This document shows positions 12,206 to 19,263 of a stretch of 64,000 bases of DNA, piece after piece. The stretch is from Waterburya sp. (lineage in GTDB: Bacteria; Cyanobacteriota; Cyanobacteriia; Cyanobacteriales; Xenococcaceae). Both the position numbers and the translations under genes were made by a program. The number at the start of each line of letters is the position of its first letter. The stretch's first letter is position 1. The stretch lies in NCBI GenBank assembly GCA_965217895.1, contig CBDCJV010000002.1:4800001-4864000 (forward strand), read 5' to 3'. A model generated the notes under the pieces. It ran no database searches, was not told the origin of the DNA, and worked only from the letters and a program-made list of their open reading frames with translations.

Positions 12206-15200
12206 TTGATGCAAACTGTGTTTTTTCGCTTCATTATCCTGGCAAAAATTTTAAGACTCAGCCAATTATTAATAGTGTGTATCGATAAGTACATTGAACC
12301 TAATCCCGTAACCGTCGCGCCAAACACTTTATTAAAAGCCGCGATCGCTTTGTTTGCTCAACCAGAAATTGACTATATTTTGGTTGAGCAAACAAAATTG
12401 GTTGGAATTTTAACCAAGGGTGATGTATTAAGAGCAATATCAACAGAAATTGAGATAAAGACTACTACTGTGGCTAAGGTAATGACTCAGCCTGTAATTG
12501 CGATCGCAACCTCGCAATGCCAGAATATTCAATCAGTTTGGTCATTACTGCAACAACATTCGATTAAACATCTACCAATTTTGAACAATGAAGGAGAATT
12601 GATTGGAGTTATCGATTATCAGAAGTTAATTCAGTCTTTTCGGCAAACAGAAAAATTGCCAGCCGATACCAGCAATATTAGTCCTCAACTATCTAACCGC
12701 GGAAGGCGGCCAACCGCAAGCCCCGCATCGGAGCGCGTTCCCTTGCGCCTGACGGCGACGCGGGGTCGCTCCTCCTTTGCAAGGCGGGGAACGCTTGACA
12801 AGCTTTCTTATGTAACTGTGGAGGTGGTTGATGAACGGCAAGCTGCACGGCGCGAGGACAAACAAGCAGAAATTCTCCAGCAAGAACGAGATTTTTCTAA
12901 AGCTGTTATTAATACTGTCGGTGCTTTAGTAGCCATATTAGATCGGCAAGGAGTAATAGTTGGTTTTAATCGTACCTGCGAGCAGGTTACTGGATACAGC
13001 TTTGCAGAAGTTAAAGGTAGACCAGTCTGGGATTTTTTGATTCCCCTTGAGGAAAAGACGACGATAAGAGCCGTATTTGAGCGATTGTTGACGGGGCAAG
13101 TTCCCAATCAATATGAAAACTGCTGGATTGCCAAAGATGGCAGTAAAAATCTTATTGCCTGGTCGAATACTGCTTTGTTTGATGCTCAGGGTAATATAGA
13201 ATTTATTGTTGCTACGGGCATTGATGTCACCGAACAGCGAAGAATTTGGAATAAGTTAGAGCTTCAATATCGACAAACCAAACTCCTCACAGAAATTACT
13301 CGCAAAATTCGGATGACCATTGAGCTAGATAAAGTCCTGCAAACTGCCGTGACTGAAGTGCAGAATCTTCTAGCTTGCGATCGCGTTTTGATTATGGAAC
13401 TAAAATCAAACAATACAGCTATACCAATTAGTGAGTCGATCCTGCCCAATCTATCTTCTATGTTGGGTTATGAGCTTGCCGATCCTTTACTGATGGGTGA
13501 ATACATAGTGAGATACCGTCAGGGAAAGGTATTGCAGATTGATAATTTGGATGATGCGCCTATTTCTTTAGATATTAAACAGCTATTAAAACAGTTTCAA
13601 ATACAGGCTAAACTAGTCGTTCCCATTCTTTCTCATGGCGAACTTAAAGGTCTTTTGATTGCCCATCAATGTCATCATCCTCGACAGTGGCAAGACAATG
13701 AAATTCTAATGCTCAATCAGCTAGCCGATCAAATTGGCGTGGCTTTAACTCAGGCTCAATTATTTAATTATTCTGAGGAGCTAGTATTAGAAAGGACTAG
13801 AGAGTTAATCTGTACCAACGAATTATTACAGGCTGAAATTAACGAACGCAAGCAAAGTGAACAAGATTTAAGAGAAAATCAGCAAAAGCTAGCTGGTATT
13901 TTGGATAATGCAGATGAGGCAATTATTTCAATTAATGAAAGACAGCAGATTCAACTATTTAATCAGGGTGCAGAGAAAATTTTTGGCTATCAGGCTGCTG
14001 AAATTATGGGGCGATCTTTAGACTTTCTTCTACCTGAAGTATTTCGCCACGTCCATAGCCAGCAGATCAAACAATTTGCTAAATCTAGCGAACAGTCCCG
14101 TAATATGACAGAGCGGAGCAGTAGTGTATATGGTCGTCGTAAAAATGGGTCAGAATTTCCCGCCGAGGCATCTGTAGCAAAACTTAAAACCAAATCAGGA
14201 ATGCTTTTTACGGTGATACTCAAAGATGTTACCGAAAGTCAACAAGCTAGAGCCAAGCTACAGTCATCGAAAGCTCTCCTTGCCAAAGCCGAACAAATTG
14301 CCAAGATTGGTAGTTGGGAATATGACCATAAAACGAACAAACGAAGCTGGTCAGAAGAATTATTTAATATTTTAGGCTTTGATAAAGACTGTCCTATACC
14401 GTCTTGTCAAGAAATTTTAGCTCGCGTTCATCCAAAGGATCTTTTACTAGTTAAAAATACCCTTCGTGCCGGACATGGACAGGGAAAATCTTGGGAAATT
14501 ACTTATCGACTACTAACCCCCGACGGTAAGGTCAAGTATTTAGAAAGTAGAGGCGAACCAACAGTAGATTCTGAGGGTAAGGTTATTAAAGTATCGGAGA
14601 CAATTATGGATGTTAGCGATCGCATCCAGGCACAAAAATCGCTGCAACGCAGTGAACAACAGTTGAGATTAATTACCGATGCTTTACCTATATTAATCGC
14701 CTACATTGATAATCAACAACGTTACCGCTACAACAATCGTACCTACGAAACCTGGTATGGAAAATCCCGTTCTACTTTACAGGGACGAGCGATCAAAGAA
14801 ATAGTCGGAGAAGACAACTATCAAAAAATGCTGCCCTACGTTGAGATGGCACTGGCAGGAAAAACAGCTACTTTCGAGAACCAACGTATTTCCGAAAAAG
14901 GCAACTCTTACTGGATGAGTGCTACCTATATTCCCGATTTTGACTCAAATGGTGAGGTAAAAGGATTTTTCTCAATGGTGGAAGATATTACCGACCGTAA
15001 GGCAGTAGAACAGATGAAAAGCGAATTTATCTCCATTGCCAGTCACGAAATGCGAACTCCCTTAACTTCGATTCATGGTGTAGTAAAATTACTCTGCGCT
15101 GGTCGCTTGGGAGAACTGTCTGAATCAGGAGCCAAAATGGCAGATATGGCTCTGAGAAATAGCGATCGCTTAAAACGCTTAGTTAACGATATTCTTGACT

Positions 15201-15762: not shown

Positions 15763-15939
15763 TATCAACAGTTAGAGCAGTTAGAGCAGTTAGACGAGCG
15801 ACCCCGCGTCGCCGACAGGCGCAAGGGAACGCGCGAGGAAGCAGTTGAAAACCCCAATTTACCGTTAGCTATCTTAATCTCAAACAAGGGTCAAACACCT
15901 ATTATTTCGTTAACAATAAAATTTTGTCCGAACCATTGA
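15763..15939. repeat. ~150-180-bp dispersed repeat, copy 1, carrying element A (15796-15833)
   Basis: Colinear with 47459-47610 (TATCAACAGTTA...GAAAACCCCAATTTA...ATCTTAATCTCAAACAAGGGTC...TATTTCGTTAACAAT.AAATTTTGT..GAACC). Confidence 0.85.
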
Positions 15940-16042
15940 TCTATACGAACAGGATTTAGTCTAATATAGGGTTTGGAAAAAATCTCACAAAATACACATA
16001 TTTAACAGATAGGATTTCTACGACTTCTTGAGTTTTAATGAC

Positions 16043-16417
16043 ATGAGCGCAAAACGTATTTTGTTTATTGATGATGAGGATGATATTAAAACCCTAGCTA
16101 GTTTTTGTCTAGAGTCTGAAGCGGGTTGGGAAATGATGAGTGCTTCGAGTGGAACAGAAGGTCTGAAAATTGCTGAAACAGAACAGCCAGATGCCATTCT
16201 GCTAGATGCCATGATGCCAGAAATAGATGGAATACAAACGCTAGAGAAGTTACTCCATAATCCTAAAACCAAGCACATCCCAACAATATTTATTACCGCT
16301 AAAGCTCAAGCAAGCGATCGCCGTCGTTTCTATAGTGCAGGAGCGAAAGGAGTAATCAATAAACCCTTTGATTCTCTAACTCTAGCTAGCCAGATCTCTG
16401 GATTTCTTGGCTGGTAG
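16043..16417 (+). CDS. Single-domain response regulator, RcaF-like
   Basis: KRILFIDDE, LDAMMP, ITAK, INKPFD. Confidence 0.9.
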   Translation: MSAKRILFIDDEDDIKTLASFCLESEAGWEMMSASSGTEGLKIAETEQPDAILLDAMMPEIDGIQTLEKLLHNPKTKHIPTIFITAKAQASDRRRFYSAGAKGVINKPFDSLTLASQISGFLGW

Positions 16418-16450
16418 CTAACCGATATCGCAGTACGTTGATTGGTTAGC

Positions 16451-16867
16451 GGTGCGACCCCCTAAAGGGTTCAGCAGTTTGACGGGCGACATAAACGCCT
16501 TTTCGGGCGGTCAACATTCTGGGGAAACCCCACGAGGGCGATTATTCAAGGCGAACTAAATTCGCCGAATCTCGCCCTCAGAATTACGCCCTCAGAAACC
16601 ACAGGCGACGCGCCCTCCTTATGCCAGGAAACCCTTTCGACACTTTGCTCAACGGGTCATAGACCCGCAACGCAAGTGTCTCACCACCGCAACTGCTTCA
16701 CCGCGTCGGCGGTAAGAGGGCAGACCCTGCGCCGCCGTCAGGCGCGTCTTGAAAAAGTTGTTCATGGGGGAAACCCCCAAGACCACACTTTTTCGCAAAG
16801 GAACGCTGCCCTAGCAAGGGAATGCTGACTTAGCAAGAGTAAGGACTTGTCCGCAACTACGCGCACC
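16451..16867. repeat. Nested aggregate of GC-rich hairpin mini-elements
   Basis: Outer stem GGTGCG/CGCACC; inner stems GAGGGCGA/TCGCCCTC, GACACTT/AAGTGTC, AGGGCAG/CTGCCCT, GAAAAAGT/ACTTTTTC; contains interrupted copies of element A. Confidence 0.8.
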
Positions 16868-16929
16868 AAGACAGGACAGAAAAATGAACTGCTCGTAAGT
16901 AACAAGTAACTTGATGACTGCTCACCGCC

Positions 16930-19263
16930 CTAAAGGGTTTTCAACACTTTCGTATTTTGGATCAGCCAGTTTTCTCCTTTAAGTATTAGCTCATAACGCA
17001 CCAGCAAGTTATCGTCATAGGATTGAGCGTTATCTAATTTTCCAGCTTGATAATGTTTAGCAATCTCTTTAACCTCTGCATCTACCGTTGCTTTTTTGGG
17101 ATTGTTAGGATCGATTTTTGCCGAACGCACGGTAACATTGTGTTCATATTCTCGATAAGAATTGCTCTTTTGGTAGTCTAAGGCGAGCTTTTGCCAAGTA
17201 GCTAGTAAAGGCTCTGCCAAAATATTATTTAGCTGGTCAATTTTATGCTCTTTGCCAAAGGCTGCTGACTTACTGGTTAGCCAAGTTTGGATCACCTGCT
17301 GGGATTGCTCGGTAAAGGTTATTTTAGGTTTGGCTGAAACTTTAGGCTTAACGTTAGGTAACTCAACCATAGGCTGAGAAATAGCGATCGCCAAAGATGA
17401 CTGATTGGCATTTTTGGCAGGATTTAAGAACAGCTTCATAGCCACAAATGCTAACGTTCCCGTTCCCAAAATAAGACCTAAGATAAACAACCAGCCCTTC
17501 CTAACGGTAGCTGAGCTTAACTTTTTCTTACGAGCAATTCGCTTTTGCCTGGCTTTGCCCTGAGCCTTTTGGATTACCTCTGGAGGAACAGCCCTTTGTT
17601 GAGATAGGGGTAAAGAAGGTGATTTTGCTTTTGCTGGGGCAGAATAATTAACCTGAGTAGAATTTTGGGGAACTGTTTGGCGAAACCTAGGTTTACTACT
17701 AATCTTAGAAGCAGCATGATTGTTTGGCAAAGCTGTGGTGGTTTGGGCTTTACCTACTGTTACGCTAACTAGTTCTCTTTCAGGCTGAGAAACCTGATTA
17801 GATGCAGCGGTTGTTGTTTTTTCAGACGCAAATAGATTACGCCAGCGAGAAAAAAAACCTGTTTCACTATTGAGCGACTTATTCTGTTGATTACTAGCAG
17901 TATCTTGCTGATGATAATCAACAGAAGCATCAGACACCTTCGGTATCAATGGTGGAAAAGCAAGTTCTTCGAGATATGCCTGAACTTCACGATCTGCAAA
18001 ATATTCTCTGATAGTCAAGCTTATGTTCGCTAAGTCAGAAAATTGAGCTACGACATCTTCCTGCAACCACTGTTCGCTATAAAAACAAATTCCTGGCAAC
18101 AGATCTTTAGTATCTAAAGAGTGTCGCTGAATTTGTTCTAGCTTTGTTTTGTCTGAACTATTTTGAAGCTTATGAATCGCTTTTTCCGTATGCCCCAGCA
18201 GCAAAGCAGATACAGCTTGCTCCCAAGCCACATCCTGCTTTTCGCCGAGATAATCGAGCTTTCTTTGGGCGCGTAAGACTAATTCGGGCTGTTTAAAGCA
18301 AAATCCTCTGGCTAAAAGAGCATAAACGGCTAAATAATTAGCGATCGCCGAATCACTTTGGGCTTCATGATCGAATAGCTGCTGTTGTTCAGTGGAGGTT
18401 AAGTAGGTTCTTAACTGCTGCACAAAGCACAAAAACTGATCGAAGTTCAAACCAGAACGATCTTGTCCTTTGCCCTCGATTCCCTGGCGTTGTAGCAGCA
18501 TTTCTCTGAGCAATTCAAATCCTTTTGCTCTTTTGGGTGAATTTGCTTGATTTTGCGAAATTAATTCGAGAACCCTATAGGGGCGAAGCTTATATAAATC
18601 TAGCTCTAATTCTGCTTTAATCTGAGGAAATAAGTTTTCGCGATTGAGTAAATCTATTCCCATTTGACTAGAAACGGCAGCATTTTCATATTCTCGCCGA
18701 TGCCACTGTTCTCGCCCCAATTCTAAGTAAGCTAGAGTCAAAGAAAGAATAATATTCTCTTGAGCCTCTGTTCTTACTTTTACTTCTCCTTGAGATGATA
18801 GTTTGTCAAACTCTTGGCTATTGAAATAATCTACCCCTAGCTGTAAAGCTAATTCGTATTCTCCTAATTCGTGCAAAATTAGCAGTGCGCCAATCAGTTG
18901 TGAAGGAGCGACTTCGATGGTAGGATTTGCCACAGGAACATCTGACCAAAGATCTTCTTGAGTCAAAGATTCTGTAGCTAATTCTGTTGACTCCTCTTCT
19001 TCTGATACTATTGCCTCAGGAACGGAAAACTCAACTGGCTGCATATTGACCAAGAATTGAGCATCATAATTAGCCCTTTGCTTAGGATCGGCTAAAACCT
19101 GATAGGCGTGCTTAATTAATTCTTGACGAGCCTGAATTGCCAGCTCGTTATATTCTCGGCGAGGCTGCTGCCTCATGCGATCGCTATATGCTTGCTCAAG
19201 CTGGCTTGAAGTTGCTTTAACAGGAACGCTTAGGATTTGATAATAGTCTAAGGGTATACGCAC
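16930..19263 (-). CDS. ftn2: Cell division protein Ftn2 (ARC6 homolog; J-like and IMS domains)
   Basis: MRIPLDYYQIL, LYKLRPYRVLEL, C-terminal WL..KS.AFG..H and VRYEL. Confidence 0.9.
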   Translation of the reverse strand: MRIPLDYYQILSVPVKATSSQLEQAYSDRMRQQPRREYNELAIQARQELIKHAYQVLADPKQRANYDAQFLVNMQPVEFSVPEAIVSEEEESTELATESLTQEDLWSDVPVANPTIEVAPSQLIGALLILHELGEYELALQLGVDYFNSQEFDKLSSQGEVKVRTEAQENIILSLTLAYLELGREQWHRREYENAAVSSQMGIDLLNRENLFPQIKAELELDLYKLRPYRVLELISQNQANSPKRAKGFELLREMLLQRQGIEGKGQDRSGLNFDQFLCFVQQLRTYLTSTEQQQLFDHEAQSDSAIANYLAVYALLARGFCFKQPELVLRAQRKLDYLGEKQDVAWEQAVSALLLGHTEKAIHKLQNSSDKTKLEQIQRHSLDTKDLLPGICFYSEQWLQEDVVAQFSDLANISLTIREYFADREVQAYLEELAFPPLIPKVSDASVDYHQQDTASNQQNKSLNSETGFFSRWRNLFASEKTTTAASNQVSQPERELVSVTVGKAQTTTALPNNHAASKISSKPRFRQTVPQNSTQVNYSAPAKAKSPSLPLSQQRAVPPEVIQKAQGKARQKRIARKKKLSSATVRKGWLFILGLILGTGTLAFVAMKLFLNPAKNANQSSLAIAISQPMVELPNVKPKVSAKPKITFTEQSQQVIQTWLTSKSAAFGKEHKIDQLNNILAEPLLATWQKLALDYQKSNSYREYEHNVTVRSAKIDPNNPKKATVDAEVKEIAKHYQAGKLDNAQSYDDNLLVRYELILKGENWLIQNTKVLKTL

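Follow-up and report, generated by a model that had tools for sequence, protein, structure and literature searches.

The window analysed here is the whole 64,000-nt stretch C2:4800001-4864000 of G000, a 5.29-Mb genome of 39% GC, and the subject of this work is a block lying in the spacer between two convergent genes, a response regulator gene and a J-domain gene. The neighbours and the repeat that hosts the block have the following window coordinates.

16028..16417, plus strand: single-domain response regulator, left neighbour of the block
16930..19263, minus strand: J-domain protein, right neighbour, with weak DnaJ matches only; the name ftn2 given to it in the earlier note is putative
16425..16447, plus strand: left part of the host, a miniature-transposon-like repeat of ~90-100 nt with imperfect terminal inverted repeats, recognised by empty-site copies and the fill series
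16873..16910, plus strand: right part of the host, without the 3' terminal repeat

The response regulator and the J-domain gene are adjacent in G000 only. In the four closest relatives compared (G017, G019, G020 and G023) they are distant or on separate contigs, and since the genes are unlinked there, the G000 junction is a rearrangement, without an orthologous spacer. The host repeat lacks its 3' end, which, together with the adjacency found in G000 only, points to window positions 16417-16930 as a rearrangement breakpoint.

Within the host lies a nest of ten gene-less hairpin inserts of 21-58 nt. Bases 16448-16872 (425 nt) are made of these inserts, belonging to seven families (A three times, E twice, and B, D, F, G and H), and of one 25-nt deletion, and the nest reaches six levels inside the miniature transposon. 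The pieces, with the evidence for each in brackets, are these.

16448..16872, plus strand: A1, the outer A copy, 51 nt when empty, no base lost, enclosing the whole nest (evidence includes the singly filled host copy C2:2917862)
16460..16700, plus strand: B1, 58 nt when empty, a small hairpin and a long stem, in the C-run of A1, no base lost (empty junctions)
16482..16617, plus strand: F, 44 nt when empty, within B1, no base lost (empty junctions)
16501..16594, plus strand: G, lodged in the F loop, 46 nt when empty, two bases (GG) replaced (empty junctions)
16532..16579, plus strand: H, a 48-nt bulged hairpin within G, the sixth and deepest level (empty G in a relative; same site filled in other G variants)
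16635..16683, plus strand: E2, a 49-nt hairpin within the inner hairpin of B1, 2-3 bases replaced (empty junctions; 7 contexts with net +47)
16701..16716, plus strand: inner stem common to A1 and the middle copy A3, after a probable 25-nt deletion between direct repeats (sister nest C2:5000298; length sum)
16717..16813, plus strand: A2, the inner A copy of the two-base-replacing variant, 46 nt when empty (12 sister contexts, 2 bases replaced, net +44)
16744..16794, plus strand: E1, a 51-nt hairpin within A2, no base lost, with a 2-base GC ambiguity (empty junctions)
16814..16832, plus strand: 3' half of A3, the middle copy, whose 5' arm is deleted
16838..16858, plus strand: D, a 21-nt element in place of GGA of A1 (judged from sister copies)

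A1 contains B1, A3 and D; B1 contains F and E2, F contains G and G contains H, while A3 contains A2, which contains E1. The 3' end of A1 occupies 16833-16872 and is split by the 21-nt D. Net lengths (51+58+44+44+48+47+44+44+51+18), less the 25 nt of the deletion and plus one extra base, give 425 as observed, with 425/425 bases assigned. The A arm missing through the deletion is retained in the sister nest at C2:5000298 (minus strand); this nest also has an internal segment inverted between short inverted repeats that belong to F and A.

An earlier note on this DNA had described the block as nested small elements; all the letters it quoted occur where it placed them, and the nesting is real and deeper than it claimed. 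Its limits for the nest, 16451-16867, fall inside the actual ones, 16448-16872, and the ends of elements were under-called: the hairpins it gave as 16534-16579 and 16639-16680 exist, but are only the cores of 48- and 49-nt inserts, and the 21-nt repeat, reported as a core at 16841-16855, is complete at 16838-16858. Three copies of A are present instead of two, and the piece at 16814, assigned by the note to the outer copy, belongs to A3, a copy that has lost its 5' arm and has 16832 as the end of its 3' arm. Also overlooked in the note were three inserts of larger size, B, F and G.

In a BLAST comparison of the block with the G000 genome 158 matches were obtained and other copies cover every module, so the multiplicity that the earlier note had proposed to check holds for each of them. 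The block as a whole folds strongly (z = -6.9; 0/100 shuffles as good), and of the single modules H reaches z of -6.2, E2 -4.4, E1 -4.3 and D about 0.1. Strong folding and the position between convergent genes could be taken as signs of one functional non-coding RNA or of a terminator region, a reading which we find hardly credible. A search of the block in Rfam gave no match and the block is not conserved as a unit, so that neither of these two conditions, which the earlier note had named as refuting its own view, arises; positions 16448-16872 hold no promoter-like site, and terminator-like signals are at chance level. The flanking genes are unlinked in the closest relatives, and the empty and partly filled alleles described below refute such a reading.

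Empty alleles were searched for in G000 and the fetched relatives by exact flanks of 10 bases per side with one mismatch, and were found for six of the nine junctions. Counts in the genome and in the relatives, respectively, were 9+2 for A1, 14+29 for B1, 12+4 for F, 6+1 for E2 and 20+32 for E1; the G junction is empty 5+3 times, 5+2 of them with GG and one with GGG. For H, A2 and D no empty allele with the block's own flanks came out of this exact-flank search of G000 and relatives. An empty G seen in a relative fixes the length of H at 48, and H occupies an identical site in several G variants; A2 and D, as they lack an own-flank empty allele, both rest on sister copies. Patterns of the collapsed forms matched once for G, once for F, six times for B and 0 times for A2. 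The host itself can be followed within G000 through a fill series: empty, +A, +A+D, +A+B+F+D, +A+B+F+A+D (with the internal inversion) and then the block itself; its copy with A alone, C2:2917862, is A1 in collapsed form. Empty and partly filled alleles, which the earlier note had hoped to see, are available in G000 and its relatives in the empty, singly filled and multiply filled states. A near copy of the left half of the nest lies at C2:802244-802700 (272 nt, 94% identity), with a different A variant and with compensatory changes in B and G.

Two other places of the window carry A, one of them within a coding frame.

12698..12799, no strand assigned: 102-nt in-frame insert in the kinase gene, composed of a 54-nt host and A (absent/54/102 series)
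12726..12773, minus strand: 48-nt A copy within the 54-nt hairpin element, keeping the frame of a PAS histidine kinase gene (three-state series across relatives)
15793..15839, plus strand: free A copy within a 9-mer tandem repeat

The kinase gene is empty in G023, has the 54-nt insert in G019 and G020 and the 102-nt insert in G000.

The same elements move in unique DNA. Among 90 A-bearing loci taken from G023, G019 and G020, many are without an orthologue or have larger nested indels, and a few are shared; where a G000 orthologue and a simple junction exist, A is a clean insert of 47-51 nt (L074, L081, L083, L086, L104, L125, L131, L143 and L155, among others). An unbiased comparison over 800 kb gave 87 indels of at least 14 nt, including A, D and other hairpin inserts. 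The element D, of 21-22 nt and of the pattern A-NN-AAGG-N5-7-CCGCA-NN-T, has a strict junction: of 110 contexts examined, 32 had an empty allele, at about 14 distinct sites, and in 32/32 exactly three bases are replaced; one weaker 4-base and one 2-base alternative alignment are due to G-runs. An independent alignment test over 204 contexts gave three replaced bases in all 16 empty orthologue or paralogue matches, a set that includes unique DNA and one site struck by two D variants, and two further matches were filled with a variant D. The lost triplets are purine-rich (GGA, AGA, ATA, AGG, GGG, AAA, TGA, GTA); in 134 reduced contexts, weighted toward the search pattern that gathered them, A occupies position +1 in 103 and position +3 in 3, and T occupies position -1 in 4. 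With 21 nt in and 3 nt out, the exchange adds a net six codons.

Other families obey their own rules. An empty allele was found for A in 62 of 139 contexts, several rows of which are ambiguous in tandem repeats; the commonest arm variant brings +51 nt with no loss, others bring 47-49, and the variant of A2 and A3 loses two bases for a net +44 (12 contexts). The whole A family ranges from +42 to +51 net, and some tails resemble microhomology with the target; given such variable junctions and tails, a single geometry would not suffice for all families. B loses nothing in 20 of 21 contexts (33 examined), E loses 2-3 bases in seven and none in four (66 contexts examined), and F and G, recoverable in 3/10 and 1/5 cases, lose nothing apart from G in F. 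Loss is fixed by the variant at 0, 2 or 3 target bases, always 3 for D, and no target duplication was seen for any insert beyond an ambiguity of 1-2 bases.

These junctions bear on a possibility that most insertions are ready-made composites, copied by recombination or gene conversion and carried along on larger elements, with new insertion being rare. The near copy at C2:802244 fits such copying, and so do the deletions and the inversion between short repeats in sister nests and the 10/10 A copies of G111 that lie in one multi-copy transposase gene. We nevertheless regard it as very unlikely to be the main process: the 47-51-nt A inserts and 21-nt D swaps in unique DNA are clean and have no flanking homology, and hosts that differ by compensatory changes bear an identical insert at an identical base. 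Copying accounts for part of the copy number and not for the junctions, and it is weakened by the unique-site insertions.

The claim of the earlier note that several non-coding families insert into each other is borne out, and the insertion takes place at fixed bases. Out of 94 D copies in G000, 22 sit at one A site, in 9 sequence variants and with an orientation of 22 to 0; a B-type start occurs in A at 50 to 2 by a loose pattern, B being placed at one A site in many arm and stem combinations, and H recurs in G variants. Taking each variant a single time leaves 9 of 65 distinct contexts, and with the share expected by chance set generously at 0.2%, the D-in-A enrichment has p about 2e-14, a value inflated by kin copies and by the tolerance of neutral DNA to inserts. 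A and B also insert in GTAG repeats.

The A pattern is present in 39/39 genomes of the genus, at 1-126 copies with 0 in the control, and outside the genus in two genomes among 301 of the phylum; D gives 4-205 matches per genome in the genus (control 1-10), with 94 copies in G000 vs 3 in its control, and 0-17 in 115 other genomes of the order (control 0-21). In the Nostoc-scale family f7 and the other sampled families neither pattern rises above control level. The genomes of 80 listed D-motif loci are mostly Waterburya, Pleurocapsa, Hyella, Xenococcaceae and other cyanobacteria, the 8/80 single matches in other phyla being taken as chance. Copy numbers of A and D correlate across the 39 genomes with rho 0.67, which we read as partly independent amplification; G006 has 48 A and 10 D, and G344 has 2 A and 78 D.

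A number of copies sit in genes of other mobile elements. In viral contigs D has 0 matches and A has one, a 48-nt copy at L260:2990-3040 that keeps the reading frame of a small gene in a phage head-tail module. All ten A copies of G111, a genome of a different family, lie at one site of a multi-copy transposase gene (L269, L274, L277, L280, L282-L287), which we take to be IS701-like. Five of five group II intron reverse transcriptase (RT) genes (L261, L262, L263, L264 and L268) have extra in-frame sequence in an identical loop before the RPLGIP motif, and the insert of L261 is an A copy enclosing D; RT genes with such inserts are likely a vehicle for spread. One multi-copy insertion sequence (C2:192125-192973 and five other copies) has a 48-nt hairpin insert in the transposase frame and a D copy, and at C2:687713 an insert of ~23 nt within a HIP1 octamer recalls SDR5.

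As for structure, the 31-nt sequence that the earlier note called A is indeed the invariant core of the family, but the mobile unit also comprises covarying arms of 6-7 bp and short tails. Arms without the core were never met, save in a few internally deleted copies; a candidate view of the core as a separate insert into pre-existing arms was rejected, there being no empty arms. Arms occur in 43 combinations, and in 24 copies hand-chosen to span the arm variants 6 of the 7 outer-stem pairs vary on both sides, with covariation of 0.37 vs 0.09 in shuffled and at most 0.06 in slid controls. D is nearly unfolded alone (z about 0.1), and its structure rests on paired terminal variants.

The inner part of A is compatible with two folds, one of which has a T-G wobble in 15 of 24 rows. 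Its loop C-G-N-N-A-G is invariant, as imposed by the search pattern and true of all copies found, with a pyrimidine as third loop base in 75 of 126 contexts. DNA mini-hairpins, in the available passages of PMC13037366, may have GNNA loops on GC-GC or CC-GG stems and are much more stable than the RNA forms, for which the motif is GNRA. The A loop fits the former and not the latter, from which we infer that single-stranded DNA may be the substrate of A. Against this count the T-G wobble, which also suits RNA, and a lean of A to the sense strand of transcription (45 to 27, p about 0.04, hand-computed with crude ORF calls). D has no such bias (30 to 33); the GC skew of G000 is weak and the origin position is not deducible from it.

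The earlier note had proposed that a trans-acting enzyme, HUH/RAYT-like or RT-linked and absent from the window, drives the insertions. No autonomous gene adjoins the modules, in line with its absence, and no autonomous parent, with a gene in the loop or flanked by modules, was found, the sole enriched neighbours being copies of one insertion sequence; the enzymes it named received no support, either from a GTAG foot, from RAYT loci or from gene counts. Spearman coefficients over the 39 genomes, which treat kin genomes as independent, are 0.18 and 0.28 for A and D vs RT, -0.30 and -0.27 vs Y1 and 0.03 and 0.01 vs IS110, so the co-occurrence expected by the note is not seen. IS110 matches are weak (E 4e-5 or worse) in G000, G019 and G020, with none in G021, G023, G011 and G344. 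TnpB, Cas1 and Rep_1, searched in five genomes each, are each absent from at least one element-rich genome; a Y2 search in five genomes pointed to nothing specific to the element-rich ones, but as it matched no control genome it is uninformative, and tyrosine recombinases are present in 5/5 genomes tested, without discrimination.

RTs occur in 37 of the 39 genomes of the genus, and those of G000 are of the group II intron type together with one Drt4-like protein (C2:1232462-1234111, E 2e-47, under the curated cut-off). The elements could accordingly be imagined as short structured RNAs, inserted through target-primed reverse transcription by a group II intron protein or a Drt4-like RT, a staggered second cut giving the fixed loss; the wobble in the inner stem of A and its mild sense lean would suit this, and R2 retrotransposons do have a fixed target loss of 2 bases. 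We consider this route unlikely, as RT counts do not follow A or D and the RT-rich G333 has 1 A and 6 D, as D flanks have no priming homology in common and D has no strand bias, and as most A loops break the GNRA rule, and the block is without a promoter-like site.

RAYT relatives were found in 33 of the 39 genomes of the genus, and G000 has an intact subclass-2.4-like RAYT (C2:3520723-3521277) with a GTAG repeat inside the gene, which the PF01797 search missed. This profile matched a single frameshifted RAYT-like gene in G000 and nothing in G020 and G017; since it misses some RAYTs, zero Y1 matches mean an incomplete absence, and an initial candidate conclusion that RAYT is absent from element-rich genomes was rejected when the motif scan found the missed gene. 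Another reading would make them REP-like passengers without a tag, to which a resident RAYT (TnpA-REP) or an IS200/IS605 Y1 transposase lends mobility. Bulged hairpins, a single orientation and the lack of target duplication fit HUH chemistry as it is presented in the parts of PMC8266576 at hand, and GTAG repeats serve as targets of A and B. Yet none of nine modules has a GTAG or GTGG foot on either strand (a CTGA foot is present on the reverse strand only of G, and the feet of H are unrelated to CTGA), and 0/21 RAYT loci carry A, B, D, F, G, H or the inner hairpin common to B and E, while 21/21 carry GTAG repeats. The trend of Y1 with A and D is negative, the genomes that harbour intact close RAYT relatives have 1-6 A copies, and no such relative turned up in G023, with its 103 A and 168 D; a fixed 3-base loss is not among the HUH features described in those parts of the source. 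We hold such cross-mobilisation to be quite unlikely.

It would be logical to suggest, and we would give it about an even chance, that the ten inserts, which represent seven families and sit each at a fixed base within one that came before, were placed as folded single-stranded DNA by a trans-acting candidate nick-and-join enzyme. Such an enzyme would read shape, that is an outer stem with a conserved bulge or loop, and not terminal repeats. If the target strand is cut once, there would be no loss, and if it is cut at two points a few bases apart, the loss would be fixed, with a hairpin whose ends are held together replacing up to three single-stranded bases. Earlier inserts would be preferred as targets, being neutral DNA in which folded single strands rich in purines lie exposed, and the nests may then travel on larger mobile elements, namely miniature transposons, insertion sequences, group II introns and a prophage. 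Against this explanation we count that none of the enzyme families searched (Y1, RT, IS110, Y2, Rep_1, TnpB and Cas1) is specific to element-rich genomes, that no gene family is flanked by modules, that D alone hardly folds, that A has the T-G wobble and the sense lean, that A junctions vary, and that nested copies do not count as separate events.

We may even suggest, tentatively and with rather less expectation of being right, an undescribed 'swap-in' class of mobile DNA, in which hairpins from 21 nt up would be exchanged for a fixed number of bases by a candidate shape-reading single-strand recombinase, and in which every family would offer landing sites for the next in a self-feeding ecosystem. 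If true, this would amount to a programmable, scar-defined editor for short inserts, with a chemistry unlike that of DDE, HUH and IS110 enzymes or of retroelements. The rules at the junctions are exact (D brings 21 nt and removes 3, B and F remove nothing, and G, E2 and one A variant each remove 2), copy numbers span 1-126 for A and 4-205 for D across relatives, and kinases, transposases, intron RTs and a phage protein have gained residues through inserts; taken together these give defined substrates and products for finding the enzyme. The in-frame inserts also show a route of protein loop growth.

To our knowledge, the movement of the smallest mobile DNAs has been an open question since the small dispersed repeats (SDRs) of Nostoc were described. 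Elhai et al. in 2008 reportedly defined SDR1-8 of Nostocaceae, of about 20-27 nt, with a structure maintained by compensatory changes and a mechanism said to be unknown; heptamer repeats and minitransposons are said to host them, and SDR copies to be nested in themselves. Our literature search found no account of the A-H families or of base-replacing micro-insertions, Elhai 2008 itself being compared through papers that cite it. In the passages available, SDRs are ~20-nt, possibly mobile, untagged repeats (PMC5861425, PMC4390886, PMC3733652, PMC2884548, PMC3116915), SDR5 inserts precisely in HIP1 (PMC4390886), and SDR-like repeats had not been reported outside Nostocaceae (PMC5861425).

The present families share with SDRs, as these are depicted there, the lack of genes, the scale of about 20 nt (D only) and precise insertion at a fixed base with empty alleles. 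Compensatory structure is found here too, in the A outer stem and the D terminal pairs, as it reportedly is in SDRs. Unlike SDRs, they belong to another lineage (Waterburya, Pleurocapsa, Hyella and Xenococcaceae), six of the seven families measure 44-58 nt, and cross-family nesting goes six deep; the fixed 3-base swap of D may be a further difference from SDR1-8, as these are described in citing papers.

REP and REPIN elements with TnpA-REP (RAYT) are likewise short, bulged, non-autonomous hairpins with a single-strand logic, and subclass 2.4 also makes in-frame insertions in genes, as far as the passages of PMC3116915, PMC8266576 and PMC6006769 go; our modules differ from what is given there in having no GTAG/GTGG foot, doublets or RAYT adjacency and in the loss of target bases. 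Derivatives of IS200/IS605 agree in the lack of target duplication, in hairpin-defined ends and in strand-specific insertion. However, no ends in common with any Y1 element came to light, copy numbers do not follow those of Y1, and a module is one hairpin, not two ends, with fixed loss of target bases; the rule of that family (no loss, 3' of a fixed tetra- or pentanucleotide) does not describe D, which loses 3 bases at a loose target. Cyanobacterial MITEs are also non-coding, dispersed and nested, and the host of the nest is of the MITE type, whereas the inserts have neither fixed-sequence terminal inverted repeats nor target duplication. The nest works like SDRs and is not a REP, a MITE or a known RNA; nesting has probably been described in kind already, and the surprising parts are the fixed 3-base swap of D and the targeting of one family by another.
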